Shown here in pieces: positions 1-19,178 of a stretch of 45,625 bases of DNA. Made by a program: the position numbers and the translations under genes. Source of the DNA: Rhodocyclaceae bacterium (GTDB lineage: Bacteria > Pseudomonadota > Gammaproteobacteria > Burkholderiales > Rhodocyclaceae); NCBI GenBank assembly GCA_027492775.1, contig JAPUEC010000189.1, forward strand, positions 1-45,625, given 5' to 3'. Each line of letters opens with the position of its first letter. The first letter of the stretch is position 1. Below the pieces are notes generated by a model. It saw only the letters and a program-made list of their open reading frames with translations, had not been told where the DNA came from and did no database searches.

Positions 1-585
1 ACCGCTCCCGGAGCCATCGCTGCCGTCACCGGAGCCACCACCGCCCGCACCCCCGCCGCGGGAGCCATCGCCCGCGCCGCCACCGCCCGCGCCGCCACCG
101 CCGGTGCCGCCGCCACCGCTCCCTGAACCATCGCCGCCGTCGCCGGTACCGCCACCGCCCGAGCCACCGCCGCCGGAACCACCGCCACCCGAGCCATCGC
201 CCGCGCCGCCATCGCCCGTTCCGCCGCCACCGCTCCCTGAGCCATCGCCGCCGTCACCGGTGCCGCCACCGCCCGAGCCATCCCCACCGGAGCCATCCCC
301 CGAACCGCCATCGCCAGTTCCGCCGCCACCGCCGCCGGTTCCGGTTCCGCCGTCTCCACCGCCGCCGGTGCCATCGCCGGTGTCGTCCGTTCCTGAACCG
401 TCGCCGCCCGCGCCGCCGCCATCGGTGCCGTCGGTGCTGGGTTTGGTCTCGGGCGGAAATGGATCCGTGTTGGGGGGCGCCGGGGGGCAGCCTTTACAGC
501 CGCCACCGCCGGGATCGCCCGGATCTCCCGGGTCGCCGGGAGTGGTGCCCCCGCCGCCGCCGCCATCCGGCGGGATGGGATCGGG
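1..585. repeat. Coding low-complexity / tandem-repeat DNA (Gly/Asp/Ser/Thr-rich tail of TpsA, with a Pro-rich shadow ORF on the plus strand)
   Basis: The minus frame gives ...PGDPGDPGDPGGGGCKGCPPAPPNTDPFPPETKPSTDGTDGGGAGGDGSG...GGGGTGDGGDGSGSGGGG... to the window edge. The 20-mer ccgccgccaccgctccctga occurs at 107-126 and again at 221-240, which is a 114-nt (38-codon) in-frame period, and the flanks are near-identical. Confidence 0.8.
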
Positions 586-3500
586 GTAGGGACTCGGATT
601 TTCACTCTTGCATACGGTCAGGTTGGTGCAGCCATTCCAGAGGCCGCCGCTGGTCCCGCCATTGGTTTCCTTGGTGTATTGCGGCGTGGCACCATAGGTG
701 TAGATGTTCTTGCCGGTGGACAAGATCAGTTTGCGGTTGCCTAGCGAAACGCCGAGGCTGTCGTTCCAGGGAATGTGAATGTCGCCGTAACCGGCTCCGC
801 CGCTGGGGAATGGGTAATCGGTGCTGCCGCTGATGATGATGGTGCTGCCGTCGGGCAGCTTGACGATGGTGGTGGAGCGGATTTCCTTTTCGTCCGGGCG
901 GGACTTGGACGAGGGGGCGATGCCGATCCAGACGGTTTCGTCGTTCAACGTGCGCAGCGTGATTTTCGGTTTATTGGGGTTGACGTAGCTCGAGGTTGGA
1001 TTCGGCAGGCTGAAGTTGTTGCTGAAAAAATGCAGTTGCGGGCCGAATGTGTCGAAGGAATGGATAGTCAGGTTGGGCGCGACCAGTCGCAGGTTGTACA
1101 GCGGCCCGACATTGTGGGCGACGATGCTGCCGGAGGTTTGCGCCGAAAGGCTGCGATAACCGAGGTTGAAGGCGCCGTCAGAACCGATATGGATGTCGCC
1201 GGCCTGGATGTTCTTGGCGCTTGAATGGATGTTCGCATCGTTGCGGATCGACTCCGGCGCGGTGCCGATGTAGAACGTGACGGTGGGATTGACGAACTTG
1301 AGCAGCGTCGCCGCGTCGTAATTGGTGTCGGCGGTGAAGTCGCTGTCGGTGCCGTTGTTGATGCCGATCCTGTTGGTGCTGGTAAAGGGTTGCAGCAAGA
1401 TTTTCGCGCCATCGGCAGTGGTCGCGTCGATCAGAATGTCCAGCGAATTGGCGCGCAGCAGCAAGGTATCGCCCTTGCTGATCAGTTTGATGATATTGAG
1501 CGCGCCGCCGGTTTGGAGGTAGAAGTTGCCAACCGGCTTGCTGGCGCTGTCGACCGAGACCGAACCCCCGCCGCTACTGGCACTGGCGTTCGCCGCCGGC
1601 GCGCCGATACCGATGGCGTTGAGGGTGCCGGTCTGGGCGGAATTGTCGATCCACATCAATTTGCCGCCGGCGGCCGCCAGCGACGATGCCTTCGATTCGA
1701 TGTAGAAAGTGCCCTTCAGGTCATCGCCGAAAACGCCCAGGGTATTGGCCTCGATGCGCTTGCCGGGCGCGGTGCGGGCGGTGAAATCGCCGCCGATGCC
1801 GATCGACACTACGCCCGAGCCGGTGGTGGTGGCGGCATTGATGTTCTGGTTGATATTGAGATTGCCGCCGATGGACAGCGACACGTTGTTGTCGTTGTAA
1901 ATGTCCGGCGTCGCTTGGCCGGTGGCGTCAACGCCGGCCGGCACGACGATGGTATTGGAAGTGGTGGTGATGCCGGAGGTGCCATTGACGGTGCCGACCG
2001 TCAGCGGGCCACCGGTATAGCTGACCGAGCCGTTGGTCGACGCGGCGAGGGTGCCGACCAGGTTGTTGGCGTTGTTGAGGACAAAGGGCGCAACCGCCGT
2101 CGCGCTGTTGCCGCGCAGCAGCAGGCTGCCGGCGGTGATCGAACCAGCGGGATCGGGCAGATTCGAAGCGTTCAAGTCGCGACGCTGGTAAACACCGCCT
2201 TCGCCGACGGTGAGCTGCACCGTCCCGACGCCGGCATTGATGCTTTGATTCAGGGTCAGGCTGGCGGGATTGGTGCCGTCGGGGAGTTTGGTCTTGTCGA
2301 AACCTGTGGCGTTGCCTGTGTTGATCGTGACATTGCCGTTGCCGGTGCTGATGCCATTGACGCTGTAGACGCTGCCCACCGTGACCGCGTTGGTGTCGGT
2401 GTAACTGAAGGCGCCATTGACCGAAGCGGCGATGGTGGAAAGGTTGTTGCCGCTGCTTGTCAGGCTCGCTGCCCCGCCGACCACCGCCATGCTGCTGGCG
2501 GTAATGGCGCCGCCGGTCTGGTTCGTTCCGCCGGAGGCACGGATGTAGAGGCTGCCGGTATCGATGTTCTGCGCCAGTGTCAAAGCGGCACTGTTTCGAT
2601 CCAGATAGAGCTGGGTGCTGCCATTGGTCTGCGTGATGCCGGAAAAGCCGTCCACCGTGCCGACGGTAAAGTTTTTGTCATTGGAAAAGCGCAATAGCCC
2701 GCCATTCAGATTGGCGGCAAAGGTATTGACCTTGTTCCAGCTATTGATGAAGCCGCTGCTGCCGACACCTGCCAGATCCCAGGCGCCACCACCGGAAATG
2801 AGCAGCGAATTGGCGCCGATGACGGTGCCAGCGCTCTGCGAGGCACCACCGGGTGCGCTCATGACGATGCTGCCGTTGTAGCCCTCGACATTCGACTTGA
2901 TGACGATCTGGTTGTTCGCCTGCAACCGCAGCGTCGTGGCCGCGCCCCATTGCACGCCACCGCCGCCGCCATCGTCGATGGTGATTGTGCCGCCCTTGGG
3001 CGCGGTGCCGGCGGCGGTGCTGGTAGTGACCGTGACGTTGCCGCTGTTGAGCGCGGCTTCCAGCGCCCCCACCGTCATGCGCGAAGTGCCGCCATTGTCG
3101 GTGGCATCCTGGAATGGCGAGCTTGCCGTCATGTCGGCGGTGGCTGGGTCGACGGCCTGGAGGATTTCGATATCGGACGGGTCCAGCAGCAACTTGCCGG
3201 CGCGGCCCTTTGGTGCCAGCGTATCGACCTTGCCGTTGAAATCGAGCAACGCCTTGCCGGAAACCTCGACCTCGCCGCCGTCGCCGGCCTGTGCGCCGCC
3301 CCGCGCCGAGATCCTGCCGTGGTAGCGGGTCAGGTCATCCGACCAGACCACCACCTTGCCGCCGTCGCCGCGACTGATGGCATCGGCGGTAATGGTGGTG
3401 TCCTTGCCGACATAGGCGGTGTTGGCGTTCGGTTGCGGCCCCTGGCCCTGGAAGCCGCCGCCGATGCGCACCGTTCCGCCGCCGGTGTCGCCGGAAGCAT

Positions 3501-4440
3501 CGATCCGGGCGGCATCGACCAGCGCCACGCGCTCGCCCAGCACGTCGACGCTGCCGCCCTTCTGACCTGCCGTCCGCCCGGAGGCATCCAGTGTTCCGGA
3601 GACCTGCGCATTGCCGCCGTCGGCCGAGAGGATGATGACGCCGTCGCGTTCCTCGACCCCCTGCGCCCGCACCAGGCCAGTGTTATTGACGGTCGCCGCC
3701 GCCATGTCGCGCGCCACCGCCGCCGTCATGATGGCGCGGCCGCCGTCGGCCAGCAATTGCCCGTTGTTTTCGACGCCGGAGAGTTCGGCCGCGGTTTTTT
3801 CGTTGACGGCGAAGTTGATCAGGCTGTCGCCGGCGATATCCAGCGTTATCTTGCTGCCGGCGGCCAGCACCACGGTACCGAGCCGGGCCTGGATCACGCC
3901 CCTGTTGGCGGCATAGTCGCCGGCCAGCACCACGTAGCCGCCGTCGCTCGCGCGGAGGATGCCGGCATTGACGACGTCACCCCGTTTAGTAAGCATGCCG
4001 GCGCGGTTGAACGCAAAGCGCCCGGCCAGGAAATCGTCATTGGAGATATTCAGGGTGGTGGCCACCAGGCCGCCCACGTCGACGGTCGCCCCGGCGCCGA
4101 AGTACACCCCGGCCGGATTGACCAGGAAAACTTGGCCGTTGGCGGAGAGGCTGCCGAGGATCGTCGAACGGTCATAACCCACCACGCGGTTGAGGATGAC
4201 CGACGCGGCATTGGGCTGCTTGAACACGACACTGTTCGCGCCGCCGATGGAAAAGCTTTGCCAGTCGATCACCGCCTTGGGCGTGGACTGGGTGATGGTC
4301 TGGTTGGCACCGGATTGCGAGACGGTGGCGGAACCGCCGGTGACGGTTCCGCCGGTCGGCAGTTGCGCGAGCGCGACGCCCCAGCAGGGCAAGGCCAGGG
4401 CGAGAACCAGCGCGCGCTTTTTGGGCTTAAAAGCTGCCAT
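1..4440 (-). CDS. Two-partner-secretion exoprotein (TpsA, filamentous-haemagglutinin family); 5' end complete, 3' end runs off the window (at least 1480 codons)
   Basis: I checked every triplet of the minus frame from ATG 4440 to position 1 and found no stop (no tta/cta/tca at plus positions 1 mod 3). The ORF is missing from the track only because it has no stop in the window. The N-terminus reads MAAFKPKKRALVLALALPCWGVALAQLPTGGTVTGGSATVSQSGANQTITQSTPKAVIDWQSFSIGGANSVVFKQPNAASVILNRVVGYDRSTILGSLSANGQVFLVNPAGVYFGAGATV, which is a signal peptide plus the TPS (haemagg_act) secretion domain. Further in is GKVVVWSDDLTRYHGRISAR, typical of this family. The start overlaps the stop of the upstream ShlB-type TpsB by 14 nt. 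Confidence 0.9.
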   Translation of the reverse strand, partial: MAAFKPKKRALVLALALPCWGVALAQLPTGGTVTGGSATVSQSGANQTITQSTPKAVIDWQSFSIGGANSVVFKQPNAASVILNRVVGYDRSTILGSLSANGQVFLVNPAGVYFGAGATVDVGGLVATTLNISNDDFLAGRFAFNRAGMLTKRGDVVNAGILRASDGGYVVLAGDYAANRGVIQARLGTVVLAAGSKITLDIAGDSLINFAVNEKTAAELSGVENNGQLLADGGRAIMTAAVARDMAAATVNNTGLVRAQGVEERDGVIILSADGGNAQVSGTLDASGRTAGQKGGSVDVLGERVALVDAARIDASGDTGGGTVRIGGGFQGQGPQPNANTAYVGKDTTITADAISRGDGGKVVVWSDDLTRYHGRISARGGAQAGDGGEVEVSGKALLDFNGKVDTLAPKGRAGKLLLDPSDIEILQAVDPATADMTASSPFQDATDNGGTSRMTVGALEAALNSGNVTVTTSTAAGTAPKGGTITIDDGGGGGVQWGAATTLRLQANNQIVIKSNVEGYNGSIVMSAPGGASQSAGTVIGANSLLISGGGAWDLAGVGSSGFINSWNKVNTFAANLNGGLLRFSNDKNFTVGTVDGFSGITQTNGSTQLYLDRNSAALTLAQNIDTGSLYIRASGGTNQTGGAITASSMAVVGGAASLTSSGNNLSTIAASVNGAFSYTDTNAVTVGSVYSVNGISTGNGNVTINTGNATGFDKTKLPDGTNPASLTLNQSINAGVGTVQLTVGEGGVYQRRDLNASNLPDPAGSITAGSLLLRGNSATAVAPFVLNNANNLVGTLAASTNGSVSYTGGPLTVGTVNGTSGITTTSNTIVVPAGVDATGQATPDIYNDNNVSLSIGGNLNINQNINAATTTGSGVVSIGIGGDFTARTAPGKRIEANTLGVFGDDLKGTFYIESKASSLAAAGGKLMWIDNSAQTGTLNAIGIGAPAANASASSGGGSVSVDSASKPVGNFYLQTGGALNIIKLISKGDTLLLRANSLDILIDATTADGAKILLQPFTSTNRIGINNGTDSDFTADTNYDAATLLKFVNPTVTFYIGTAPESIRNDANIHSSAKNIQAGDIHIGSDGAFNLGYRSLSAQTSGSIVAHNVGPLYNLRLVAPNLTIHSFDTFGPQLHFFSNNFSLPNPTSSYVNPNKPKITLRTLNDETVWIGIAPSSKSRPDEKEIRSTTIVKLPDGSTIIISGSTDYPFPSGGAGYGDIHIPWNDSLGVSLGNRKLILSTGKNIYTYGATPQYTKETNGGTSGGLWNGCTNLTVCKSENPSPYPDPIPPDGGGGGGTTPGDPGDPGDPGGGGCKGCPPAPPNTDPFPPETKPSTDGTDGGGAGGDGSGTDDTGDGTGGGGDGGTGTGGGGGGTGDGGSGDGSGGDGSGGGGTGDGGDGSGSGGGGTGDGGAGDGSGGGGSGGGGSGGGGTGDGGDGSGSGGGGTGGGGAGGGGAGDGSRGGGAGGGGSGDGSDGSGSG

Positions 4441-6094
4441 TGATGCTGATCCAGAATCGTTGGCGCTTGCCCTCGTTGCTGGCGCCGGATGAACCGATTT
4501 TTCGCGCGAAATCGAAGGACAACGCCGTTCCGGCAAAGGGATAGAAACTGGTGCCAAAACCGGCGCTACGTAGCCGGTCGCTGCTGTCGCTGTATCCCGG
4601 CATCTTGTAGATGACCTGGCCCATGTCGGCCGTCAGCCGAAAGACGCCCATGCGGCCGGCCAATGCGAATGGATGGCGCAATTCCGCGGTCGCCAGATAG
4701 CCGGTATCGCCGCGCACCTCAGAGGGACGAAAAGCCCGGACGCTGCCCGGCCCGCCGAGAGAGAATTTCTCGGTGTCCGGCAACATGTCCTTGCTGTAGA
4801 CCATGTTGCCGCGCAGGTAGAAATCCCATTCCTTGAAGAAGGGCGTGGTGTGGCTGACGTCGGCTTCCAGGCGGCCAAACAGCGCATCCCGCTGTTGCGG
4901 CGTTTTCACGCCCTTGAAATTGGTGGCCAGCGACAGGCTCGCGCTCGTGACCGAAGTGTCCTCATGCACATGGTTCAGCAGGTAGTTGAGGTTGAACACA
5001 TTGATCTTGTGGTCCGAGATCGGCACGCCGAGCGCGGTTTGCGTCAAATGGCTCTGCTTGACGCCGACATTGAACCACTGGCTGGTGTGGCGTGTGCGCT
5101 GGAACGGGTGGCTGATCGTAATGTCGGCGGTGCGGATTTCTCCGGTGATGCCGAGTGCCGCCAGCGCGCCGGAAACATCGTACTGGGCGCGCGAGCTGCC
5201 GAATGCGATCCGCGTGCCGTCGGTATTCAGGGGCGCGGAATAGCCAAACTTCCAATAGCGCACCAGCTTATGCTCGGTGCTCGACCCGGAAAACGCCAAC
5301 TGATCGCCGAATCCGAAGGGGGAATTGAGATTGAGCGCCACTTCCGCCTTGTTCTGGCCGGTTTCCCGGCGGCCATGGTTGTTGATGCCGACGTTGCCGG
5401 AGACCAGCTTTTCGATGACGCGGACCTCGGCATTGGTGGTGCCGAATTCTGTGCCGGGGTCGAGCACCGCCTTGGCCGACAAGCCGGGGATGTCGTTGAG
5501 CAGAAGCATGCTGCGCTCCAGCGCCTCGCCGGTGACCAGCGTTCCCGGTGCGAGCGGCGCCGTGCGAGCGGCCAGGAAGTGGGCGCTGTGACGGCGGTTG
5601 CCGGTGAACGACACCTTACCGATGCGGCCCTCGACGATGCGTACCGTCACCGCGCCATCGACCACGCGCTGCGGCGGGATCACCGCGCGAGCCAGCGGGT
5701 AGCCGCGCTCCTGGTAGAAGGCGGTGATGGTGTCGGCAGCCAGATTCAAATCGTAAAGATTCAACTCCATGTCGAGAAAGCGCTCGAGCTGCGTCTTCAA
5801 GGTGCGGCTGGAAAACACCGTGTTGCCCGACATGTTGAACGCATGCACCTGGAAGCGGCGTGCCCGGGGATCATGCGGCGAAGGTTTCGGCTGAACTGGC
5901 ATCACGACCTGCGCCGGCGTCGCCGGCAGGCGCATGCGTGCCGGTTCCATCGTGTCCTGCACGCTGCCCGGCGTCAGCGGCGCATCCGCCGCCCAGGCCG
6001 GCAGCACCGCTTGCAGCAGCAGCCATGCGCCCAGCCACCGGCGCGGCGCACGGGCCGGCGAAGACGCGATGGGGAGCGGACGCAAAATGGGCAC
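4427..6094 (-). CDS. TpsB outer-membrane transporter (ShlB/FhaC/HecB family, POTRA domains plus beta-barrel)
   Basis: 555 aa. Signal peptide MPILRPLPIASSPARAPRRWLGAWLLLQAVLPAWAADA. POTRA-like FQVHAFNMSGNTVFSSRTLKTQLERF...VRIVEGRIGKVSFTGN, followed by a long barrel ending ...FWISINGSF (terminal aromatic residue). It lies directly upstream of a TPS-domain protein and overlaps it. Confidence 0.9.
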   Translation of the reverse strand: MPILRPLPIASSPARAPRRWLGAWLLLQAVLPAWAADAPLTPGSVQDTMEPARMRLPATPAQVVMPVQPKPSPHDPRARRFQVHAFNMSGNTVFSSRTLKTQLERFLDMELNLYDLNLAADTITAFYQERGYPLARAVIPPQRVVDGAVTVRIVEGRIGKVSFTGNRRHSAHFLAARTAPLAPGTLVTGEALERSMLLLNDIPGLSAKAVLDPGTEFGTTNAEVRVIEKLVSGNVGINNHGRRETGQNKAEVALNLNSPFGFGDQLAFSGSSTEHKLVRYWKFGYSAPLNTDGTRIAFGSSRAQYDVSGALAALGITGEIRTADITISHPFQRTRHTSQWFNVGVKQSHLTQTALGVPISDHKINVFNLNYLLNHVHEDTSVTSASLSLATNFKGVKTPQQRDALFGRLEADVSHTTPFFKEWDFYLRGNMVYSKDMLPDTEKFSLGGPGSVRAFRPSEVRGDTGYLATAELRHPFALAGRMGVFRLTADMGQVIYKMPGYSDSSDRLRSAGFGTSFYPFAGTALSFDFARKIGSSGASNEGKRQRFWISINGSF

Positions 6095-6112
6095 GATGGC
6101 GGGCGGCCCTGA

Positions 6113-6568
6113 CTATGCGGAGAGCGCTTCGCGCAGGCGGCGGTTGGCATCCTGCAGGTCGCGCGCCATCTGAACCGCGATCATGTATTGGAGATGGCGG
6201 CCGATCGGCGAGGCCTCCTGGAAGAGCTTGGCGAAGCCTTCGCGAGAGAGCGCTGCGGTCTGGCCGGGACCGACCGCGGCGCAGGTCGAAGCCGCCGGCA
6301 GATTGTCGACCAGCGAAAGGATGCCGAACATCTCGCCATCGCAAACTTCGCGCAGCTCGTACTCATCGCCGCCTTCGGCGTCATGCCGGGTGATGCGCAC
6401 CACGCCGCGCAGCAGGAGATACAGTGCCTCGCCCTGCTGTCCCTGATGAATGAATGTGTGACCGGCCTCGTGGTCGCGCACGGTGAGCTGGGCGGCGAAG
6501 GCTTCCAACTGCGGCGGGCTGAAATCCTCGAATGCCGGCAGGTTTTTGAGGAAAATTTTCAAGTCCAT
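6113..6568 (-). CDS. Standalone cyclic-nucleotide-binding (CAP/Crp effector-domain-like) protein with no output domain
   Basis: 151 aa. FLKNLPAFEDFSPPQLEAFAAQLTVRDHEAGHTFIHQGQQGEALYLLLRGVVRI...DGEMFGILSLVDNLPAASTCAAV has the CNB beta-roll layout. No HTH or other domain follows. Confidence 0.7.
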   Translation of the reverse strand: MDLKIFLKNLPAFEDFSPPQLEAFAAQLTVRDHEAGHTFIHQGQQGEALYLLLRGVVRITRHDAEGGDEYELREVCDGEMFGILSLVDNLPAASTCAAVGPGQTAALSREGFAKLFQEASPIGRHLQYMIAVQMARDLQDANRRLREALSA

Positions 6569-6601
6569 ATCGGGCTTTCCAATGCGTGAGGTGATGCCGA
6601 T

Positions 6602-10103: not shown

Positions 10104-10104
10104 G

Positions 10105-10959: not shown

Positions 10960-12626
10960 GACCGCTTGTCCTCCGCCGCAAACATGCTGAAATCGATTTC
11001 CAGGCCGCGTTCCGCCAACTCTTCATAAAATTCCGGAATCTGGCCGGTGGCGATATGGCGCCCCTTGACCTTGCCGTCCGCGCCGAAGCCTTCGCGCTTG
11101 AAGAGGAAGATGTCCTGGAGCTGGATGACGTCGCCTTCCATGCCGGTAATCTCGGTGACGTGGGTGATCTTGCGCGAGCCGCAGGAAAAGCGATTCTGCT
11201 GGACGATGAAGCGCACCGCCGAGGCGATCTGTTCGCGGATCGCCCGGATCGGCAGATCCATGCCGGCCATCATCACCATCACTTCGATCCGCGCCAGACA
11301 ATCGCGCGGGGTGTTAGCGTGGGCAGTGGTGAGCGAGCCGTCGTGGCCGGTGTTCATCGCCGTCAGCATGTCGAGGGCTTCGCCGCCACGGCATTCACCG
11401 ACGACAATGCGGTCCGGGCGCATGCGCAAGCAGTTCTTGACCAGGTCGCGAATCGAGACCAGCCCCTTGCCTTCGGCGTTGGCCGGGCGCGATTCGAGGC
11501 CGACCAGGTTGGGCTGGCCGAGCTGCAGTTCGGCCGCATCCTCGACCGTGACGATGCGCTCGTCTTCCGGGATGTAATTCGACATGACGTTCAAGAGCGT
11601 GGTCTTGCCCGAGCCGGTGCCGCCGGAAATGATGATGTTGGCCTTCTGCTCGACAATGGTTCTCAGGAAATTGAGGATGGCCGGAGTCATCGAGCCGAAG
11701 CGGATCAGGTCTTCGCCGGCAAGCTTCTTTTTCGAGAACTTGCGGATGGTGATATTGGCGCCCTTCAGGGCCAGCGGCGGGATCACCGCATTCACACGCG
11801 AGCCGTCCTTGAGCCGGGCGTCGACCATGGGCGAGCTTTCGTCGATGCGCCGGCCGATGGGCGTGACGATGCGCTCGATCGCCGAGAGCACCGCCTGGTT
11901 GCTGGTGAAGGTGATTTCCGATTTGCGCAGCTTGCCATTGCGCTCGATGAAGATTTCCTCATGGTTATTCACCATGATTTCGGAAACCGTTTCATCGGCG
12001 ATCAAGTCTTCCAGCGGGCCCAGGCCGACCACTTCGTCGAGGACGCGCTTGACCAGCATGGCGCGATCCAGATGCGGCGGGATGCTGCGGTCGGCGGCAA
12101 CGATTTCTTCCAGCATGTTGCGCGTATTGGTGCGCAATTCCTCTTCGCTCTGGCGGTTGACGTCGACCCGGCGCAGGTCCATTTGCTTGATGAGCTGCAG
12201 ATGCAGGTGCTTGAGGAATTTGACGATTTCAGCGGCGGCGGCAGCGGCCGCCTCGTCGGCTTCCTCGCAGCCGGCGGCGGGGGCGGCCGTCGGTGCCGGC
12301 GCGGCATCGACGGGAGGTGACGCGACCTCATCCTCCAGGTCCAGCACCTCCATGGAGTAGTCGCAGATCGTGATCTTGTTGCCCGGTTTCAGCGGCCCGA
12401 ACATGCCCTCGATCTTCACGCCATCGACGCTGGTGCCGGCCGAAGCCCCGTGGTCCTCCACATACACGCCGTCGCTCTTGCGGTGCACCGTTGCGTGGCG
12501 GCGCCCGACGCTCCAGCCTTGAAGGATGATGCGGTTATCGTCGTTCTTGCCGATCGTGCAGCTGTCGATCGTGCATTCCTCTTCGGTGCGCACGCCTTTC
12601 GGCGTGATGACGGCAATTCGTAGCAT
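10956..12626 (-). CDS. cpaF: CpaF/TadA secretion ATPase with an N-terminal FHA domain
   Basis: 556 aa. N-terminal FHA-like sequence: CTIGKNDDNRIILQGWSVGRRHATVHRKSDGVYVEDHGASAGTSVDGVKI. An Ala-rich linker follows, then a VirB11/CpaF core with Walker A GGTGSGKTTLLN, DRIVVGECRGGEA and LTAMNTGHDGSLTTAHAN. Confidence 0.9.
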   Translation of the reverse strand: MLRIAVITPKGVRTEEECTIDSCTIGKNDDNRIILQGWSVGRRHATVHRKSDGVYVEDHGASAGTSVDGVKIEGMFGPLKPGNKITICDYSMEVLDLEDEVASPPVDAAPAPTAAPAAGCEEADEAAAAAAAEIVKFLKHLHLQLIKQMDLRRVDVNRQSEEELRTNTRNMLEEIVAADRSIPPHLDRAMLVKRVLDEVVGLGPLEDLIADETVSEIMVNNHEEIFIERNGKLRKSEITFTSNQAVLSAIERIVTPIGRRIDESSPMVDARLKDGSRVNAVIPPLALKGANITIRKFSKKKLAGEDLIRFGSMTPAILNFLRTIVEQKANIIISGGTGSGKTTLLNVMSNYIPEDERIVTVEDAAELQLGQPNLVGLESRPANAEGKGLVSIRDLVKNCLRMRPDRIVVGECRGGEALDMLTAMNTGHDGSLTTAHANTPRDCLARIEVMVMMAGMDLPIRAIREQIASAVRFIVQQNRFSCGSRKITHVTEITGMEGDVIQLQDIFLFKREGFGADGKVKGRHIATGQIPEFYEELAERGLEIDFSMFAAEDKRS

Positions 12627-12635
12627 GCCTGTTCC

Positions 12636-13925
12636 TTAGTCGACGATGTCCTGATTGTTCAACTTGCGCTCAAAACGCTGACGCATGTCCATGCCTTTTT
12701 CCACACGTTCGCGGTTGACGGTCGAGGCCGGATCGAAAACGTTGGGCGTGACCAGGATGACCAGATCGGTGCGGCCCGATTTGAAGTTGTCGGACCGGAA
12801 CAGGCGGCCGATGACCGGCAGGTTGGAAATGCCGGGCACCCGGGTGGTGTCGTTGGTCATTTCGGAATTGACCAGGCCCGACAGGACGATGGTTTGCCCC
12901 GCTTTGACGTTGATCTCGGTCTCGGACTGGCGGGTCAGGAAGCCGGGGATGCCCTGCACCTGCACCGAGGAATCGATGCTGCTGATCTCGGTCTGGATCT
13001 TGGCGACGATGTTGCCGTCGTTGTCGGCAATCGGCTTGATCGCCAACCGGATGCCGTAATCCTTGAATTCCACCGAGCCGCCGCCGAGTGCGGAGGTCGC
13101 GGGCAGCGGAATCTGGCCGCCAGCCAGGAACTTGGCTTCGCCGCCACTGCGCGCAGACAGTTCCGGTTCCGCCAGCGTATAGACGTCGCCGTTGTTCTTG
13201 CCGAGATTGATGGTGGTGTTGATCAGCGTGGATATGCCGAGATAGGTGGCGACCCCGCTGTGCGGCATGGGCAGAATGCCCTTCAACGCGCCCTGGGTTT
13301 GCGGCATGTTGCTGCCGAGATTGCCGCTAAAGCCGAGCATCGGGCCGGCAGCCGAACCGGGCCATTGCAGGCCGATGTTTTCCATGAGCGACTTCTTGAT
13401 CTCGATGATCTGCACCTTCATGTAAATCATCTTCTTCATCGACATTTCTTCCTCGGAGACGAGGCTGGTCGCTTGCGGGTAGGCCTTGGTCACGGCCGCG
13501 ATCCGCGCCAGGTCTTCTTTGCTGGCACTGCCGGTGATGACGACGTTGGCGCCCACCGGGGTCACCTTGATCGACTTGATGCCGCCCAGCATGGCGCTGA
13601 CATTGCGATAGGCGTCGCCGGAATCGCGCGGGCTGATGCGGACGGTGTAAGCGCTGCGCCGGTTTTTGCCGGACCAGATGATCAGCGAGGTCTCGCCCGG
13701 CGCTTCGGCAATCAGCAGCAGTTCCTGGCTGTTGAGAATCGACGTCGTGATCAGCTTGCCGTTTCCAACGGCGATGCGCTGCACCCGGTCGACCGGCAGC
13801 GTTTTGACCTCCCCGGCGAACATCAATATTTCATGCGGCCTGGCGTCGGATGCCTTGTCTTGGGCGAGCGCCGCGCCGGCCAGCGCGAAAAGGCAGCAGA
13901 AAATGGCGAGAAATCGGTTGGACAT
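12636..13925 (-). CDS. cpaC: CpaC/RcpA secretin
   Basis: 429 aa with a signal peptide and BON-like N-domains. The secretin C-domain reads ...GQTIVLSGLVNSEMTNDTTRVPGISNLPVIGRLFRSDNFKSGRTDLVILVTPNV. Confidence 0.9.
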   Translation of the reverse strand: MSNRFLAIFCCLFALAGAALAQDKASDARPHEILMFAGEVKTLPVDRVQRIAVGNGKLITTSILNSQELLLIAEAPGETSLIIWSGKNRRSAYTVRISPRDSGDAYRNVSAMLGGIKSIKVTPVGANVVITGSASKEDLARIAAVTKAYPQATSLVSEEEMSMKKMIYMKVQIIEIKKSLMENIGLQWPGSAAGPMLGFSGNLGSNMPQTQGALKGILPMPHSGVATYLGISTLINTTINLGKNNGDVYTLAEPELSARSGGEAKFLAGGQIPLPATSALGGGSVEFKDYGIRLAIKPIADNDGNIVAKIQTEISSIDSSVQVQGIPGFLTRQSETEINVKAGQTIVLSGLVNSEMTNDTTRVPGISNLPVIGRLFRSDNFKSGRTDLVILVTPNVFDPASTVNRERVEKGMDMRQRFERKLNNQDIVD

Positions 13926-13939
13926 GGTCTACCTGCTTG

Positions 13940-15016
13940 TCATTTGGAGGGTTTGCCGCCGGCACTCTGGCTATTGGCGGTGCTGAGCTTGATCAGATCG
14001 GTCAGGGATTGCGGCAGCGCCGCCTGGGCGGCGGCGGTGCCGGTGGGCGCGGCAGCCGCCGGGCCGGCCGGCGTCGGCGTCAGGCTGGCGGGCATCGGCA
14101 CGTTGATCACCGGTGCAACCGCATCGCTCCCGCCCTTGCCACCGATGAAATACTCGACGTAGGAGGCGGAATACGGAGCGCGCGCCGCCGGTTTTTCGGC
14201 GGCCCGGGCCATGCGCCGCTCGCGCTCACGCTCGCGGATGTCTTCCAGCAGGTTGTTGGCCGAAACCGTCTCGAAATCGACTTCCTGGCGGTCCTTCTCG
14301 TTGCGCAGCACGGCGCGGAGCTTGCCGAGTTCCTGTGCCAGCGCCAGGCGCGCCGCTTGGGTCGGCGTGACTTCGAGGGTCAGGTTGCTGTAGCTGCGCC
14401 GCCGCTCGGTGCTGGCGGTGGCCGGGTCATCCTGCGTCACCTTCTGACCGGTTGCCAGCACCTTGATCTGGTCGAGGAAGGGAACGACCGTTTGATTGCT
14501 GCCGCCGGGTTCCTGGCCGCTGGAAATGACGAGCATCAGATCGACCATGTTGCCGGGTTCGACCATGTGGGACACCGAGTTCATTTCATCGACGGCGATG
14601 GTCATGGCGCGCCGGCCGGCTTTCAGGGTGCCGGAAAAATCGGCGAAGACCTCGCGGACATCGGCCTTGCGCAGCGGTCGGCCGCGCTCCACCGGACGGA
14701 TCAGCGCCTGGCCCTTGAGGGCGTCGAACTGCGCCACGGTGATCGTGTCCTCATAGACGAAATCCGCCGAGATGTTGCGCGCGGCGACCAGATTCTCCTC
14801 GAGCAGGGTGCCCGGGGGCAGGGCCTTGATCGGCACCACCACGGCGACGGTCCCCCCCTTGTCCTGGGTACGCGCCTTGATTTCCGCTTCCATGCTCTGT
14901 TCGCGGAACCGTAGATATTGCATCGACAGCCATGCGGTCAGCAGGCTGAGGACGATGGCGACGATCAACATCAGCCAGGTTTTGTTGATCTTGATATTCG
15001 GGCGCTGGAGTTTCAA
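13940..15016 (-). CDS. cpaB: CpaB/RcpC Flp pilus assembly protein
   Basis: 358 aa. N-terminal TM helix WLMLIVAIVLSLLTAWL, a SAF-like segment (VVVPIKALPPGTLLEENLV...), an RcpC-like domain and a Pro/Ala-rich tail. The start at 15016 is TTG, preceded by AGGAAA. The alternative ATG at 14971 would remove the charged N-terminus. Confidence 0.8.
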   Translation of the reverse strand: MKLQRPNIKINKTWLMLIVAIVLSLLTAWLSMQYLRFREQSMEAEIKARTQDKGGTVAVVVPIKALPPGTLLEENLVAARNISADFVYEDTITVAQFDALKGQALIRPVERGRPLRKADVREVFADFSGTLKAGRRAMTIAVDEMNSVSHMVEPGNMVDLMLVISSGQEPGGSNQTVVPFLDQIKVLATGQKVTQDDPATASTERRRSYSNLTLEVTPTQAARLALAQELGKLRAVLRNEKDRQEVDFETVSANNLLEDIRERERERRMARAAEKPAARAPYSASYVEYFIGGKGGSDAVAPVINVPMPASLTPTPAGPAAAAPTGTAAAQAALPQSLTDLIKLSTANSQSAGGKPSK

Positions 15017-15070
15017 TTCGGTTTCCTGCCTAAGGTTGGAATTGCGAATGGACTGCGTCGGACCTGAAAA

Positions 15071-15376
15071 CTAGTTGAAGGAGATATCGATCGGCCATTC
15101 CGGATCCTTCAAGTCAATGCATTTGTCGATCGAGATCGAGACCGGGCCCATGCCCGCCGAATTGAAGCAATTGGGCATCGACGACACGGAAATAGCGTAG
15201 GAATAGTCGGTGTAATAGTTGCGAATCGCAGTCGCCAGCTTCTGGATCGGCGGATCGCTGCCGGTCACAAGGACGATGACGCCAACCATCAGCACCACCA
15301 GGTATTCGATGATCGACTGCCCGCGCATGCGCGCGGGCGGCGCCACCAGCCTTGATCGCATGAGGCGCGTCGTCAT
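15071..15376 (-). CDS. Small prepilin-like protein (Flp/TadE-type G-x4-EY motif)
   Basis: 101 aa. ...PPARMRGQSIIEYLVVLMVGVIVLV is the cleavage-type motif plus a hydrophobic helix. Its ATG overlaps the stop of the upstream gene (ATGA). Confidence 0.6.
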   Translation of the reverse strand: MTTRLMRSRLVAPPARMRGQSIIEYLVVLMVGVIVLVTGSDPPIQKLATAIRNYYTDYSYAISVSSMPNCFNSAGMGPVSISIDKCIDLKDPEWPIDISFN

Positions 15377-16092
15377 GGGTTTTCCACCAGGTTGGCCAGG
15401 ACCATGGTGTGCTGGCCCTCGCGCGTGATCACGAGGCTGGCTTCGGCCGCGCCTTTTTTCATCACCAGCGTGATTCCCGGGCCGCGCTTGGTGCTGATCT
15501 GATAGCTATTCACCATCTTCCAGCCGCGGTCGGCGAGGTTCTGGCGGTAGAAGCCGGCGTTGGTTTCGGCGGAGAAACCGTTGGAAAGCAGAATGGTCCT
15601 GGCGCTCTTGCCCTCGTCGCGATGGTCGATATCGTTGAGGACAGTGCTGCCCGTCATCATCGGCAAAGCCTTGTCAGCGGGCGTGACCTTGGTCTGTCCC
15701 GGCGCCTGGGTTGCGCTCAGGAGGCCGGTCGAGCCGGGTCCGGCCGCCTGCACCTGCACGGTGAAAAAGCATCGGCCGCGCATGGCGGTGATGGTTCGCC
15801 AGGGTTCGACTGTATTTTCCACCGGCGCGGCGGGGCCGGTACCGCGCCATGCCTGGCGGTAGAAGGCGAGTATTTCCTCCGGCTTTTGTTCGCTGTCGAA
15901 GCGCTTGATGCTCATCGGCACGCCGTTGTACATCATGTACGGCGCCACCCACTGCAGCTTGGCCTTGCTCGGTTCTACGAAGCTGGGGCAATCGAGTTCC
16001 TCTGCCCGGAGGCTCGGGGTGAGCAGCATGCAAGTCGCCGCGAGGGCTGCGCCCACTAGGAAAATCCGGTGATGGAGGCGGGCGCTCGCCAT
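15373..16092 (-). CDS. Exported protein of unknown function with an internal duplication
   Basis: 239 aa. Signal peptide MASARLHHRIFLVGAALAATCMLLTPSLRAEE. Two similar halves: ILAFYRQAWRGTG...CFFTVQVQAAG and NAGFYRQNLADRGWKMV...ASLVITREGQHTMVLANLV. I cannot name a family for it. Confidence 0.55.
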   Translation of the reverse strand: MASARLHHRIFLVGAALAATCMLLTPSLRAEELDCPSFVEPSKAKLQWVAPYMMYNGVPMSIKRFDSEQKPEEILAFYRQAWRGTGPAAPVENTVEPWRTITAMRGRCFFTVQVQAAGPGSTGLLSATQAPGQTKVTPADKALPMMTGSTVLNDIDHRDEGKSARTILLSNGFSAETNAGFYRQNLADRGWKMVNSYQISTKRGPGITLVMKKGAAEASLVITREGQHTMVLANLVENP

Positions 16093-16093
16093 G

Positions 16094-16942
16094 TTATTTC
16101 AGCCGATCGGCGGGAACGGCATCCGGCGCGATCTTGCCCGGCTCGAGCTTCGAGGCTTCCGGAAGGAAGACGGACAAGGCGCCCAGCACGTAGTCCATGA
16201 CTTTTACGCCACCGATTTCGGCGGCGAAAATCGAGGTTGGCACCAGGCCCTTCGCCTGTTGCTTGACGCTGGTCTTGTTCGCATCGTCCGGGCCGTTGGC
16301 GCTCCAGCCGTTAGCCAGCAGCACATTGGTTTCGGTGAAGCTGGCCGTCGAGTTCTTGGAGAGGAAATGGTCGTAGTCGATATCCTTGACCTTGATCGTC
16401 ACCTTCGCCGAGTAATTGCCCTTCATTTCCAGCACGAAGGGGCCGAGGGTCGAGGCGAAATTGGCGATGGGGTCGAGAATCACGTTCAGCGTTCCCGGCG
16501 CCTGGTTGCTGCCGACGTTGTTCTCGATGTCGCTGTAGTTGGCCAGGAGCGCGGTGCCGCGGCGATCTTGCCAGAGGGTTTTGGTGCTGGTCTTGAAGCC
16601 GGTAGCGCTCCGGTCGGCATTCGAAAAGGCATCGGTGGCCGTGGTCTCCGAGAGGTGGCGCACCCCGAGTTCACGGCGAATCTGATCGTCGGTCTTTTCA
16701 TTGGCTTGCCAGCGGCGGGAGACGCCGAACCAGCCGAGCGATGAAGCCGCGTCGCCGCCGTACCAAACCGTCCGTTCCCAGGCGGCATAGCGCGAGGTCT
16801 GCACCGCGGCGGCGCGCATGTCGAGGTACTTGCCGAGCAGCGGAATTGCCAGGAACAACGGCACCAGCACGAAGGCCGCGACGATCAGCAGTTCGATCAT
16901 CGCCTGGCCTCGGGCATGACGGATGGTGGCGTTGGTTACCAT
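16094..16942 (-). CDS. TadE-like pseudopilin
   Basis: The track ORF 16094-17431 was trimmed to the ATG at 16942, which overlaps the TAA of the upstream gene by 7 nt. MVTNATIRHARGQAMIELLIVAAFVLVPLFLAIPLLGKYLDMRAAAVQTSRYAAWERT matches the TadE N-terminal domain. Confidence 0.7.
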   Translation of the reverse strand: MVTNATIRHARGQAMIELLIVAAFVLVPLFLAIPLLGKYLDMRAAAVQTSRYAAWERTVWYGGDAASSLGWFGVSRRWQANEKTDDQIRRELGVRHLSETTATDAFSNADRSATGFKTSTKTLWQDRRGTALLANYSDIENNVGSNQAPGTLNVILDPIANFASTLGPFVLEMKGNYSAKVTIKVKDIDYDHFLSKNSTASFTETNVLLANGWSANGPDDANKTSVKQQAKGLVPTSIFAAEIGGVKVMDYVLGALSVFLPEASKLEPGKIAPDAVPADRLK

Positions 16943-18504
16943 AGGTGATAGGAAAGCGAGGCGTATTTTTCCAGGAAGTTGTTCGGGGCGACCCGGGCCT
17001 GCCAGTAGGGGTTGTAGAGGCTGCCGAGTTCGGCCTTGCTGTCGCTGCGCGCCCACAGTTTTTTTGGCCGCGAGAAATAGATTTCCGCCTTGGTCAGGCT
17101 GCGCATGTAGCCGCTTTGAGTGCCGTTGGTCAGCGCCAAGGAGCCGCCGGAAATGTTGTTGCTGGTCGGAATCTTGCTGTCGGCCTTTTCGACTTCGAGG
17201 ATCAGCGCCGGACCGACCAGATTGTCCTTGTCGACCTTCTTGACATCGAAATAGGTGCGCAGACCGGAGCTGGAAGAGAGCACGCTGCCAGCCCCCTTGC
17301 CGCGCTGAATCGCCGCGGCGCCGGCCGTGTTCACATTGTTGTAAACGCCGCCGTAGGCATCCGCCGTCGCCGTGCCAAAGTTGTTGTTCGGGTTCAAATT
17401 GCTGCTTTGGCCGGATTGGGCGGCGCCCCACCCCATGGGAATGAAGGGGAAGGGAATCGGGATGGGAATGGGAATGCCGAGAATGCTGATCCAGAAGATG
17501 GCGATGCCGAAAAACCCCGTGCCGTCCATGGCGCTCCAGGTCTTCTTCTGGTTATTGGCGAGTTTCAATTCGGTGCCGCCGCGGTGCCACAGGTACATCA
17601 GCAGCGCCCCATTTTGATAGGGAATGAAGCGCGTCGGATCGACCACGAAGGGCGTCAGATACATCATTTCGGGGAAATTCTTCGTCGGCCCGCCATTCCT
17701 GGTGCTACGGTTCTTGGAAAAGCCATCGAGAGAATCGATGGTGACCTGCGCCATACGGTCGCCCTTGGTGCCGTCCTGGTCGGCGGTGTTCGGGTCCTTC
17801 TTCTGGGTGAAGGTAAACCACTGCGCCAAGTGAACGATGGCCGCGATCGTGCCCGGTGTGCTGAGATCGGCATTGGCGTCGTTCAGCTTGATGACGTTGT
17901 AAGCCTCGTTGAAGGTCAACAGATCCTGGACCGGGCCCAGCGATGTGGCATCCACGCCGGCCAGCTTGTTCAGCACTTGGGCCGGCGAGAGGCCGATGGT
18001 TTGCGCCACCGTCAATGCCGTGCCGTAGTGATAGACCATCTGGGCAACGCGCAGCACGTCGATCAGGCCGTCGAGCAGCTTTGCCGTGATCGGCCCGGCG
18101 GTATTCATGACGTTCATAAAGGTCTTGGAGGCCGGTTTGTAGAGCTTCACCGGGGTATCCCAGAGAATTTTCGCCAGTGGGCCGCCAAGCGAAGTCAATA
18201 CCTGCGGGACCCACGAGGATGGGCCGTTATAGGTGCCTGAATAATTGCGTGCCCAGGAAGTGATGCCCACCACCTGCGCCACGGCCACCTGGTTAGCGAT
18301 AATGGCGCGGTTGGTATAGGCGGAAAAATTATAGTCGCGCGCCTCTGCCAGAACGGCGCTGTAGGCGGCGGCGTCGGCGGTGTTCTGCAGGCGCATCTTG
18401 GCGATCGACTGCTGGCCCATGGTGTACAGGGACACCATCACCAGCAAGATGATGGTGACGGTAATCAGCGAGAACACCAGCGCCTGTCCGCGCTGGCGGC
18501 TCAT
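16936..18504 (-). CDS. TadG-like large pseudopilin / pilus-associated protein
   Basis: MSRQRGQALVFSLITVTIILLVMVSLYTMGQQSIAKMRLQNTADAAAYSAVLAEARD matches the TadE/G-like N-terminal domain. I prefer the ATG at 18504 over the track's TTG at 18561. Confidence 0.7.
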   Translation of the reverse strand: MSRQRGQALVFSLITVTIILLVMVSLYTMGQQSIAKMRLQNTADAAAYSAVLAEARDYNFSAYTNRAIIANQVAVAQVVGITSWARNYSGTYNGPSSWVPQVLTSLGGPLAKILWDTPVKLYKPASKTFMNVMNTAGPITAKLLDGLIDVLRVAQMVYHYGTALTVAQTIGLSPAQVLNKLAGVDATSLGPVQDLLTFNEAYNVIKLNDANADLSTPGTIAAIVHLAQWFTFTQKKDPNTADQDGTKGDRMAQVTIDSLDGFSKNRSTRNGGPTKNFPEMMYLTPFVVDPTRFIPYQNGALLMYLWHRGGTELKLANNQKKTWSAMDGTGFFGIAIFWISILGIPIPIPIPFPFIPMGWGAAQSGQSSNLNPNNNFGTATADAYGGVYNNVNTAGAAAIQRGKGAGSVLSSSSGLRTYFDVKKVDKDNLVGPALILEVEKADSKIPTSNNISGGSLALTNGTQSGYMRSLTKAEIYFSRPKKLWARSDSKAELGSLYNPYWQARVAPNNFLEKYASLSYHLW

Positions 18505-18564
18505 GGTCAGCGGCGACGCCAAGGTCACACCCGCGGCATGGGCGTCCGGGCCAAAGAACAATAC

Positions 18565-18597
18565 GCCATCCGGCCGCAGCGGCGGCGGGCGGATGGC
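18565..18597 (-). terminator. Stem-loop between flp and the assembly genes (candidate partial terminator / attenuator)
   Basis: The minus strand reads GCCATCCG-CCC-GCCGC-CGCT-GCGGC-CGGATGGC: an 8-bp stem plus a 5-bp stem, a 3-nt bulge and a tetraloop. It is followed by GTATTGTTCTTTGG. It lies 26 nt after the flp stop. Confidence 0.45.
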
Positions 18598-18622
18598 TGC
18601 ATGGAGATGGCCCGGGCCGGTG

Positions 18623-18901
18623 CTACTTGTTGCCTGAGTCGTAGCTGGACATGCCCTTGGATTCGGCCGCCTTGGTCTGGGCGCTCTTCGCCGAATCCGC
18701 GGCAGTCTTCTTGCCTTCAGTCGCGCCGGTGCCGGCGACTTCGCCCGCGAGGCCGGAGACCTGACCGCGGATGGTCTGCCCGAACATGCTGTAGACGCCG
18801 ATGGCGGCCACGGCGATGAGTGCGACGATGATGATGTATTCGGTCATACCCTGGCCGGCTTGACGGAGAGAAAAACGCTCATTGCTACGCTTGCTTTGCA
18901 T
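18623..18901 (-). CDS. flp: Flp-family type IVb pilin
   Basis: The track ORF was trimmed to the ATG at 18901. MQSKRSNERFSLRQAGQGMTEYIIIVALIAVAAIGVYSMFGQ contains the Flp motif G-x4-EY plus a hydrophobic helix. The 92-aa protein has a Lys/Ala/Ser/Thr-rich C-terminal tail. Confidence 0.85.
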   Translation of the reverse strand: MQSKRSNERFSLRQAGQGMTEYIIIVALIAVAAIGVYSMFGQTIRGQVSGLAGEVAGTGATEGKKTAADSAKSAQTKAAESKGMSSYDSGNK

Positions 18902-19178
18902 GTTGCACCCCCAGAAGGTGTCGGTTTGTTGGCAAAAACTGAATGCTTGTCCGGATCCGTCGACCACCCGTTCACGGAAACGAATACTATACTAACGTAA
19001 TAATAGATAAATTTTTGAAAGTTACCTTGGCTTTTCGAAACACAAGCGTCGTTTCGAGGCAAGCAAATACAGGGCGCTATTTTCATATCATGGCGCCGGT
19101 CGATTTTCGTGGTGCGGTAAGCGCAGCGCGGCTGTCGGCGGTTGCGGCTGAACCTCGTTTCTTGGAGAAGGAAGCGGA

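Follow-up and report, generated by a model that had tools for sequence, protein, structure and literature searches.

Class III Tad pilus genes joined to an EtpA-like two-partner-secretion module: a probable composite surface-attachment locus in Burkholderiales

Tad pili are widespread colonisation factors, and two-partner-secretion (TPS) adhesins have mostly been studied alone. A TPS exoprotein encoded in or beside a pilus operon, and serving the same adhesion programme, is known from Bordetella (fhaB-fimBCD-fhaC) and from the Pseudomonas aeruginosa cupB locus (CupB5 with TpsB4). EtpA of enterotoxigenic Escherichia coli (ETEC) binds flagellar tips, the known case of a TPS adhesin acting together with a filament (PMC5422565, which also lists the CupB5/Tps4 reference), CdrA is a TPS adhesin held in CdrB by a cysteine hook (PMC7616799), and the Tad pilus is without a defined adhesive module (PMC7616799). 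Here we analyse a 45,625-nt stretch of DNA from a Rhodocyclaceae bacterium of soil or freshwater (GenBank assembly GCA_027492775.1, contig JAPUEC010000189.1; "the window" below always means this whole stretch), the low-coordinate 18.9 kb of which hold a minus-strand array where Tad pilus genes run into genes for two cyclic-nucleotide-binding (CNB)-like proteins and a TpsB-TpsA pair. From sequence comparison, and with a probability of roughly 60%, we read the array as a composite surface-attachment locus, in which a class III Tad module is joined to a Sel1/CNB/TpsBA adhesin module, each of which is also found apart.

Eighteen consecutive minus-strand genes fill the array, and all their starts, stops, overlaps and gaps were re-derived. 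Stop and start codons are shared at ten junctions (ATGA or GTGA, plus overlaps of 7 and 14 nt), and the remaining gaps measure 118, 54, 33, 18, 14, 9, 1 and 1 nt, an intergenic total of 248 nt of 18.9 kb. Mechanical longest-open-reading-frame (ORF) calls were in the wrong frame or over-extended for tadB (10100-11026) and for the DUF805 gene (7042-7818); the sensible coordinates are the shorter ones of the first-pass annotation, a model's reading of the letters, whose eighteen same-strand genes, junctions and domain calls were all reproduced by the re-derived ORFs and Pfam matches. In transcription order, with a slash marking predicted pilin cleavage, the array reads:

18623-18901, minus strand: flp, Flp-type prepilin of 92 aa, predicted cleavage site AG/QGMTEY, Flp_Fap below the Pfam cut-off (20 bits); then a 118-nt gap
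16936-18504, minus strand: tadG-like gene, 522 aa, PF13400 Tad (1e-08); 7-nt overlap with tadE1
16094-16942, minus strand: tadE1, TadE/TadF-like minor pilin of 282 aa, motif G/QAMIEL, no Pfam match; then a 1-nt gap
15373-16092, minus strand: 239-aa periplasmic protein with a signal peptide; ATGA overlap with the mini-pilin gene
15071-15376, minus strand: mini-pilin of 101 aa, motif G/QSIIEY, position conserved; then a 54-nt gap
13940-15016, minus strand: CpaB/RcpC, RcpC (6e-28) and TIGR03177 (4e-44); then a 14-nt gap
12636-13925, minus strand: CpaC/RcpA secretin, Secretin (1e-37) and T2SS-T3SS_pil_N; then a 9-nt gap
10956-12626, minus strand: FHA-CpaF motor ATPase of class III architecture, FHA (9e-12) and T2SSE (2e-62); GTGA overlap with tadB
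10105-10959, minus strand: TadB platform protein, T2SSF (1.5e-18); then a 1-nt gap
9216-10103, minus strand: TadC platform protein, T2SSF (1.5e-16); GTGA overlap with the DUF192 gene
8869-9219, minus strand: DUF192 protein, PF02643 (3e-17); ATGA overlap with the TPR gene
8348-8872, minus strand: TadD-like TPR protein, TPR families, signal peptide ending in Cys (...LLPAGGC), a candidate pilotin; ATGA overlap with tadE2
7581-8351, minus strand: tadE2, TadE-like minor pilin of 256 aa, PF07811 (3e-11), last gene of the stand-alone Tad module; ATGA overlap with the DUF805 gene
7042-7584, minus strand: DUF805 inner-membrane protein of 180 aa with about four transmembrane segments by hydropathy, PF05656 (2e-18), at the joint between the modules; ATGA overlap with CNB1
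6602-7045, minus strand: CNB1, cytoplasmic cNMP-binding-like protein, PF00027 (5e-17); then a 33-nt gap
6113-6568, minus strand: CNB2, second cNMP-binding-like protein, PF00027 (6e-16); then an 18-nt gap
4427-6094, minus strand: TpsB transporter with POTRA and ShlB-type barrel, ShlB (3e-28) and POTRA_2 (8e-19); 14-nt overlap with tpsA
1-4440, minus strand: TpsA exoprotein, EtpA/HMW1-like, signal peptide, PF05860 TPS (3e-36) and TIGR01901 (2e-22); at least 1480 codons, running off the window; full-length orthologues of 1713-1849 aa

The domains that pass the Pfam cut-offs are Tad (in TadG), RcpC, Secretin with pilus-N, FHA with T2SSE, T2SSF twice, DUF192, TPR and TadE, and in the 3' part DUF805, cNMP_binding twice, POTRA_2 with ShlB, and TPS. 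A search of NCBIfam gave no further names for the products of tadE1, the 239-aa protein gene, the mini-pilin gene, the DUF192 gene, tadE2 and the DUF805 gene.

The linkage recurs across genomes. CNB1 has homologues in Oxalobacteraceae and other Burkholderiales, in Rhodocyclaceae and in Chitinimonas, and a scan of GTDB representative genomes with a CNB1 alignment returned 50 loci (L numbers denote these and the other loci below), which were mapped with the window proteins by tblastn. A first class (A; at least 15 loci, plus L001 and L005) has the complete colinear order from tadE1 through tadE2-DUF805-CNB1-CNB2-tpsB-tpsA in genomes or metagenome-assembled genomes (MAGs) of Paucimonas, Noviherbaspirillum, Herminiimonas, Oxalicibacterium and other Oxalobacteraceae, with protein identities from 45% (DUF805) to 89% (TadC) and with the overlaps at tadE2/DUF805/CNB1 retained; the locus is complete in a cultured strain, Paucimonas lemoignei DSM 7445. 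In a second class (B; about 33 loci) CNB1-CNB2 is divergent from tpsB-tpsA and no Tad gene lies within 10 kb. Because 23 of these class B loci hold a Sel1-repeat gene between CNB1 and tpsB, its product 44-50% identical over its full length to a Sel1 protein encoded just upstream of flp in the window, Sel1 belongs to the TPS module, whose conserved core is Sel1, TpsB, TpsA, CNB1 and CNB2.

Scanning a metagenome collection with a tadE2 alignment added 80 loci, and with them further arrangements of the same parts. The first is the order of the window (L062, L065, L068, L069, L071 and L072). The second, found in L076 and others, has tpsB-tpsA directly after the Tad genes, with a reversed DUF805 gene and then CNB1-CNB2 after tpsA in L076. 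The third has the Tad genes, one small gene (encoding a 2-oxoglutarate (2OG) oxygenase, a DUF3617 or a DUF805 protein) and then, in convergent orientation, a giant tpsA coding for 2100-3083 aa (L085, L088, L089, L094, L123 and L081), the end of a tpsB being visible beyond the convergent tpsA in L094. The fourth places CNB1-CNB2 after the Tad genes, followed in L132 by a tpsA of the type seen in L061 and in L111 (2364-5758, on a low-GC contig of 48%) by two genes, one for a protein with a FecR domain and one for a class III cyclase with CHASE2. In the Burkholderiaceae MAG loci L053/L061 a fused CNB1-CNB2 ORF is divergent from flp, and directly after tadE2 of L061 (15716-21722) stand a gene for a 1074-aa TPS-domain protein, 35% identical to window TpsA over aa 10-527, and one for a large TPR-CHAT protein, with no TpsB visible within that locus. 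DUF805 genes lie near the system in other gene orders too (L076, L081).

Of the 21 metagenome loci that extend at least 6 kb past tadE2, 13 carry an orthologous TPS gene, and when tadE2 identity is taken into account (at least 40%, again with at least 6 kb downstream) the figures become 13 of 14 for the close loci against none of eight for more distant Tad loci. The first-pass annotation had asked whether CNB, DUF805 and TpsBA genes recurrently stand 3' of FHA-CpaF Tad loci that lack TadZ, and for TPS genes this holds in 13 of the 14 close loci and in none of the eight distant ones; it had also allowed that the adjacency might be peculiar to one genome, a concern dispelled by the conservation of the full array in Oxalobacteraceae and by the return of Tad-TPS-CNB linkage in other orders, at least four of them in Burkholderiales outside that family. 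A neighbourhood kept through changes of order and strand is a classical signature of functional coupling, and we therefore consider that the two modules are coupled and most likely work together in surface attachment. The coupling could consist in co-regulation only, in sequential action during attachment, or in TpsA docking physically onto the pilus.

The 13-gene stretch that begins with flp and ends with tadE2 carries the hallmarks of a Tad pilus: a Flp prepilin motif, CpaF with TadB and TadC, a secretin with CpaB, and TadE/TadF pseudopilins with TadG. The class-III signal G/Qxx[VI]E[YL] is present at the N-termini of the flp, tadE1, mini-pilin and tadE2 products; the Flp homologue in L053/L061 is 63% identical, and tadE1 is kept in all loci of this Tad subtype. 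The FHA-CpaF fusion, put down at first reading as atypical, is the published class III CpaF, whose FHA-intrinsically disordered region-ATPase architecture matches the window protein (PMC12019362), and it is very abundant, at least 8000 database proteins matching it at E < 1e-100; Myxococcus KilF also carries an FHA-ATPase fusion (PMC8460266). The absence of linked tadZ/cpaE and tadV, in turn, was confirmed among the ORFs scanned and characterises the Tad subtype as a whole, no ParA/MinD-like gene for TadZ/CpaE being found in the array or homologous loci, nor among the ORFs scanned elsewhere in the window.

As a marker of the subtype we used the 239-aa periplasmic protein, all of whose 109 homologues lie inside Tad loci of this subtype wherever the context was read. 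Its AlphaFold2 model (predicted local distance difference test score 86.6) has two repeats of a beta-beta-alpha-beta4 unit, and Foldseek against the PDB returned nothing at E < 1e-3, with weak partial matches to TplEi, DcrB and PsbP-like proteins. One UniRef entry names an orthologue TcpQ-like.

The Tad module is separable. L058 and L059 have the flp-to-tadE2 set of 13 genes on its own, with a 2OG-Fe(II) oxygenase gene or an opposite-strand gene coming after it, and the MAG CAZHJU01 holds both modules unlinked (the TPS/CNB module in L026, the full Tad subtype in L057). P0063 and P0252 both come from the JWN94 MAG, with FHA-CpaF read at P0252, and L036 and P0348 probably share contig JAUXYA010000029, with FHA-CpaF read at P0348 (at P0252 and P0348 only CpaF was read). 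At the level of anecdote, then, at least two, and probably three, class B genomes with an unlinked TPS/CNB module also encode FHA-CpaF elsewhere. The Tad copies that bear a kinase gene (L057, L059, L060, L119) are without TPS genes: a Ser/Thr kinase with a canonical CNB domain (phosphate-binding cassette, PBC, 'FGE..RSAS') is encoded directly upstream of flp in L057 (5834-7177), L059 (5439-6776) and L060 (5829-7172), and a Pkinase plus Peripla_BP_6 sensor protein after tadE2 in L119 (1120-3489). Neither in these copies nor in L058 is TadV or TadZ linked to the Tad genes. These neighbours fit a phospho-threonine-reading FHA domain on CpaF, and suggest that the pilus motor may be controlled by a Ser/Thr kinase through phospho-threonine and FHA. 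We also considered whether the kinase-fused CNB domain of L057 and L059 is the same module as CNB1 and CNB2, and rejected this for want of a BLAST match.

The TPS pair has the features of two-partner secretion, with a TPS domain and Sec signal peptide in TpsA and an adjacent POTRA/Omp85-type TpsB. The first ~460 residues of TpsA align to ETEC EtpA (PDB 8vba; E 7e-76; aa 20-876, E 3e-70), the alignment being weaker from ~460 to ~876, and the next matches are HMW1 and HxuA; the best solved relatives of TpsB are CdiB, the POTRA domain of TpsB4, and FhaC. Full-length TpsA orthologues (1713-3083 aa) share a plan of TPS domain, long beta-helix-like passenger, Cys/Pro-rich motif, low-complexity spacer of 300-450 aa rich in G/D/S/T/N or P/T, and conserved C-terminal motif, which in 16 of 18 (colinear loci, L076 and Chitinimonas) is bracketed by two Cys ~40 residues apart. 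By analogy with the CdrA cysteine hook, which it resembles, this Cys pair may tether TpsA in its transporter. In the window (1-700, TpsA ~1250-1480) and in the L001 and L005 orthologues the spacer region is a very long Gly/Asp/Ser/Thr-rich tract with GGxGDG-like periodicity, without the hydrophobic positions of RTX repeats and with local GC up to 70%; the equivalent spacer of the class B locus L002 is Pro/Thr/Gly-rich. Neither the array nor the sequence following tpsA in L001 and L005 holds an EtpC/HMW1C glycosyltransferase gene; the downstream genes differ between these two loci (small ORFs in L001, riboflavin genes in L005; the window ends inside tpsA). The 3083-aa convergent TpsA of L089 (11350-20601, minus strand) has no Pfam match at E up to 1e-3, and its N-terminal region is 43% identical by tblastn to window TpsA aa 13-698; the Pfam miss may be an effect of the composition filter.

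CNB1 and CNB2 are paralogues of ~150 aa, 25% identical, and both families keep the Gly-Glu of the PBC. In the CNB1 family an invariant Ala97 aligns with the phosphate-binding Arg of the PKG PBC, and in the CNB2 family, with its motif 'PA[AS][AS]TC', an Ala aligns to Arg82 of CAP; CNB1 has in addition the invariant motif [VLI]IRDRMPV[DE]. The fusion of both into one 329-aa ORF, in the order CNB1-CNB2, in L053/L061 points to a heterodimer, which the two proteins probably form. They match the tandem-CNB family TIGR03896 below its cut-off (56 and 35 bits versus 161), CNB2 as the first half and CNB1 as the second. Class III cyclases are found near the CNB system in three unrelated layouts: four genes upstream of Sel1 in the window and Paucimonas (a dCache cyclase), after CNB2 in L111 (the CHASE2 cyclase), and, in four Chitinimonas loci, between tpsB and the divergent CNB pair:

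L046/L047/L048 7996-9822 and L051 7896-9722, minus strand: Chitinimonas dCache-HAMP class III cyclase, in the place of the Sel1 gene

Such sensor-linked neighbours in three layouts favour a nucleotide-type signalling role for the CNB pair, and the dCache cyclase is tentatively a candidate for its signal source.

Outside the eighteen genes lie four further features:

18561-18602, minus strand: stable hairpin with a U-rich tract in the flp-tadG gap, fold -61.5 kcal/mol (z = -3.0), terminator-like match
18902-19178, no strand assigned: divergent intergenic region of 277 nt separating flp from the Sel1 gene, AT-rich at ~18990-19060, presumed promoter region
19179-20084, plus strand: periplasmic Sel1-repeat protein of 301 aa with six repeats, Pfam Sel1 (4e-66), signal peptide ...LTAHA/D (slash, predicted cleavage), divergent from flp
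23121-25370, minus strand: dCache-sensor class III nucleotide cyclase, Guanylate_cyc and dCache_1, start codon uncertain

The hairpin that the first-pass annotation had placed within the 118-nt flp-tadG gap indeed folds stably (z = -3.0) and is followed by a U-rich run, and is a candidate attenuator or transcript stabiliser; all other terminator-like matches in the scanned stretch lie inside coding sequence. Paucimonas has a hairpin of different sequence in the same position, and there is none in more distant loci, where the flp-tadG gap is only 15-30 nt. The 277-nt divergent region is probably the promoter region of the array. A consensus scan returned no sigma-70-like site in 19.4 kb versus 3.7 expected, a result that is uninformative for a genome of 62% GC. 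The gene overlaps make one transcription unit plausible here; in other genomes tpsA-tpsB is convergent to the Tad operon, so that it is not co-transcription that has been conserved.

The window Sel1 protein is 72% identical to the product of the Paucimonas gene in the same position. Beyond it the minus strand encodes an Asp/Glu racemase, an SDF symporter, an SBP_bac_3 protein and the dCache class III cyclase, a four-gene block syntenic between the window (20112-25370, minus strand) and Paucimonas lemoignei (L056 995-5964), the two cyclases being 68% identical. The longest-ORF calls of the SBP_bac_3 gene and the cyclase gene overlap by ~130 nt, and one start is probably mis-set. The remaining scanned ORFs of the window are housekeeping genes (accBC, prmA, lipopolysaccharide core genes, TolC and others); a protein encoded at 43215-44645 (minus strand) has a eukaryotic-type carbonic anhydrase domain, preceded by an N-terminal region that weakly resembles Adhesin_E (E 1e-4). 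As GC content is even along the array, we rejected the idea that the TPS half was acquired horizontally in recent times.

As a composite attachment locus, the array would work as follows. The 13-gene module would build a class III FHA-CpaF Tad/Flp pilus machine, with Flp, the minor pilins TadE1, mini-pilin and TadE2, TadG, an FHA-CpaF/TadB/TadC motor, and an envelope set of CpaC secretin, CpaB and TadD-like TPR protein, and the four proteins with a G/Qxx[VI]E[YL] leader would be cut by a prepilin peptidase from elsewhere in the genome. TpsA would be a Sec substrate whose TPS domain the POTRA domains of TpsB receive, and the EtpA-like beta-helical adhesin would fold outside the cell, kept tethered in the transporter by its Cys pair. 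The periplasmic Sel1 protein and the two cytoplasmic CNB-like proteins appear to be conserved accessories of the TPS pair, and expression is probably under a cyclic-nucleotide-type signal that the CNB pair reads. In Oxalobacteraceae the two modules and the DUF805 gene are joined via overlapping stop and start codons, and such joints suggest that pilus and adhesin are made together there.

Several observations weigh against this reading. The convergent arrangements show that co-transcription is dispensable, and modules found apart can presumably each work alone. Loci that share an arrangement also share descent, which makes the counts overstate independence and puts the number of events nearer five than thirteen; many of the loci are moreover MAG or metagenome contigs, and the fused CNB gene rests on one assembly. 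The scanned ORFs of the 45.6-kb window gave no Peptidase_A24 match for a TadV/CpaA prepilin peptidase, and L056-L061 gave none within 10 kb; this enzyme may be encoded elsewhere in the genome. The C-terminus of the window TpsA, where its orthologues have the Cys pair, lies outside the window. CNB1 and CNB2 have no signal peptide, transmembrane segment or DNA-binding domain that would indicate a target, and their ligand may not be cAMP or cGMP, as the Arg is absent in both families.

Closest to the proposed composite locus is the idea that TpsA docks on the tip or shaft of the Tad pilus as its adhesive module, much as EtpA bridges flagellar tips to host cells. That the closest solved relative of TpsA binds flagellar tips (PMC5422565), that the Tad pilus is otherwise without a defined adhesion module (PMC7616799), and that TPS genes, in several orientations, adjoin this Tad subtype specifically at its 3' end all speak for it; the ~33 loci with a TPS module and no linked Tad genes speak against it, as does the likely Cys-hook tethering, which would hold TpsA on its own transporter rather than on the pilus. 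On this analogy with EtpA we regard docking as possible though unlikely. A related proposal goes further, to an undescribed, widely distributed Burkholderiales system in which the Tad pilus and a Cys-hook-tethered EtpA-like fibre form one device with a CNB/cyclase switch and a DUF805/Sel1 relay. TpsA would then be the adhesive module that the pilus lacks, or the two would work in relay; an Arg-less heterodimeric CNB receptor, fed by the sensor cyclases, would switch deployment from inside the cell; and DUF805 and Sel1 would carry the signal to the tethered adhesin, an inside-out circuit like LapD/LapG-CdrA built of unrelated parts. We hold this, too, to be doubtful.

Much less probable is a neutral juxtaposition of two independent surface systems whose order was inherited vertically in one family. 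Each module does exist alone, and the exact 18-gene order is confined to Oxalobacteraceae; the shared stop and start codons at the junctions, the re-formation of the linkage in at least four other orders or orientations outside that family, and the difference between 13 of 14 close and none of eight distant loci have nevertheless strongly weakened this explanation already.

We likewise give little credence to contact-dependent antagonism, which the first-pass annotation had entertained and which would make TpsA a toxin like those of contact-dependent inhibition or the Tad genes a Kil-like killing machine. The order tpsB before tpsA, the match of TpsB to CdiB as its best PDB hit, and the FHA-CpaF of the Kil system (PMC8460266) would fit. 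Against this, the TPS region is EtpA/HMW1/HxuA-like, with no CdiA among the five solved chains matched, and TadG and a TadD-like protein, missing from Kil, are present here. None of the 18 full-length TpsA orthologues has VENN, the TPS domain is the sole Pfam domain, with no toxin domain, the C-terminal motif with its Cys pair is shared by 16 rather than being a polymorphic toxin, and no immunity-like gene is conserved between L001 and L005, whose genes after tpsA differ, all of which disfavours antagonism. The type IV filament superfamily includes secretion machines, and a short pseudopilus or piston that exports or releases the TPS cargo or another substrate could account for the many minor-pilin-like genes (four, plus tadG) and the missing TadZ and TadV linkage, but it is the most improbable explanation of all, given that Flp, the secretin, CpaB and a TadD-like protein are all present, as is typical of Tad systems that form pili, that TpsA has a dedicated transporter and that the Tad module is frequent without any TPS.

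The conserved genetic coupling of one particular Tad subtype to one particular family of EtpA-like TPS proteins suggests that environmental Betaproteobacteria have a common attachment programme, a case strengthened by the dedicated CNB pair, by Sel1 and by the sensor cyclases or Ser/Thr kinases that recur nearby. The locus also offers testable candidates for control of the FHA-CpaF motor, for the function of Arg-less stand-alone CNB proteins, and for the tethering and regulation of TPS adhesins.

The components are all of known kinds; for their association we found no published description, a literature search that reached few subscription journals returning no publication on Tad genes linked to TPS, CNB and Sel1 genes. 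Like the flp-tadV-rcpCAB-tadZABCDEFG locus of Aggregatibacter actinomycetemcomitans and the cpa locus of Caulobacter crescentus, the array encodes Flp, TadE-like proteins, TadG, CpaB, a secretin, CpaF, two T2SSF proteins and a TadD-like protein; unlike them it has no linked TadV, TadZ/CpaE or RcpB, adds the 239-aa protein, the mini-pilin and the DUF192 protein, and is welded to DUF805, the CNB pair and TpsBA. With the Kil machine of Myxococcus xanthus, a diverged Tad machine (PMC8460266), it shares an FHA-fused CpaF-type ATPase, but Kil is without TadG and TadD and bears many additional FHA proteins, whereas the array has TadG and a TadD-like protein, no other FHA proteins and no sign of killing. 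The CNB pair recalls the TIGR03896 'cyc_nuc_ocin' proteins beside bacteriocin-type exporters in combining two CNB domains with an export system, yet scores far below the family cut-off and differs in lineage, domain order and transport system; the CNB1 and CNB2 families also depart from canonical cAMP/cGMP receptor domains in lacking the conserved PBC Arg (...R[ST]A...).

Among adhesins, P. aeruginosa CdrAB combines a TPS adhesin, a C-terminal cysteine hook and control by a nucleotide second messenger (PMC7616799, PMC5422565). The TpsA orthologues, with their conserved C-terminal Cys pair ~40 aa apart, are CdrA-like in this respect and may be tethered likewise, but the receptor here would be CNB-like and not of the c-di-GMP type, the passenger is EtpA-like and without MBG2 repeats, and the genes annotated by Pfam in the window and in related loci include neither LapD nor LapG, for which no dedicated search was made. 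The pili of the Bordetella and cupB loci are chaperone-usher fimbriae rather than Tad pili, and have no CNB, Sel1 or DUF805 partners. ETEC EtpBAC and Haemophilus influenzae HMW1ABC, finally, are matched in the N-terminal alignment of TpsA and in the B-before-A order; the array differs from both in having no EtpC/HMW1C, in a C-terminal half made of an acidic low-complexity spacer and the Cys-pair motif, and in its Sel1 and CNB partners, and where the partner filament of EtpA is the flagellar tip, the neighbouring filament here is a Tad pilus.

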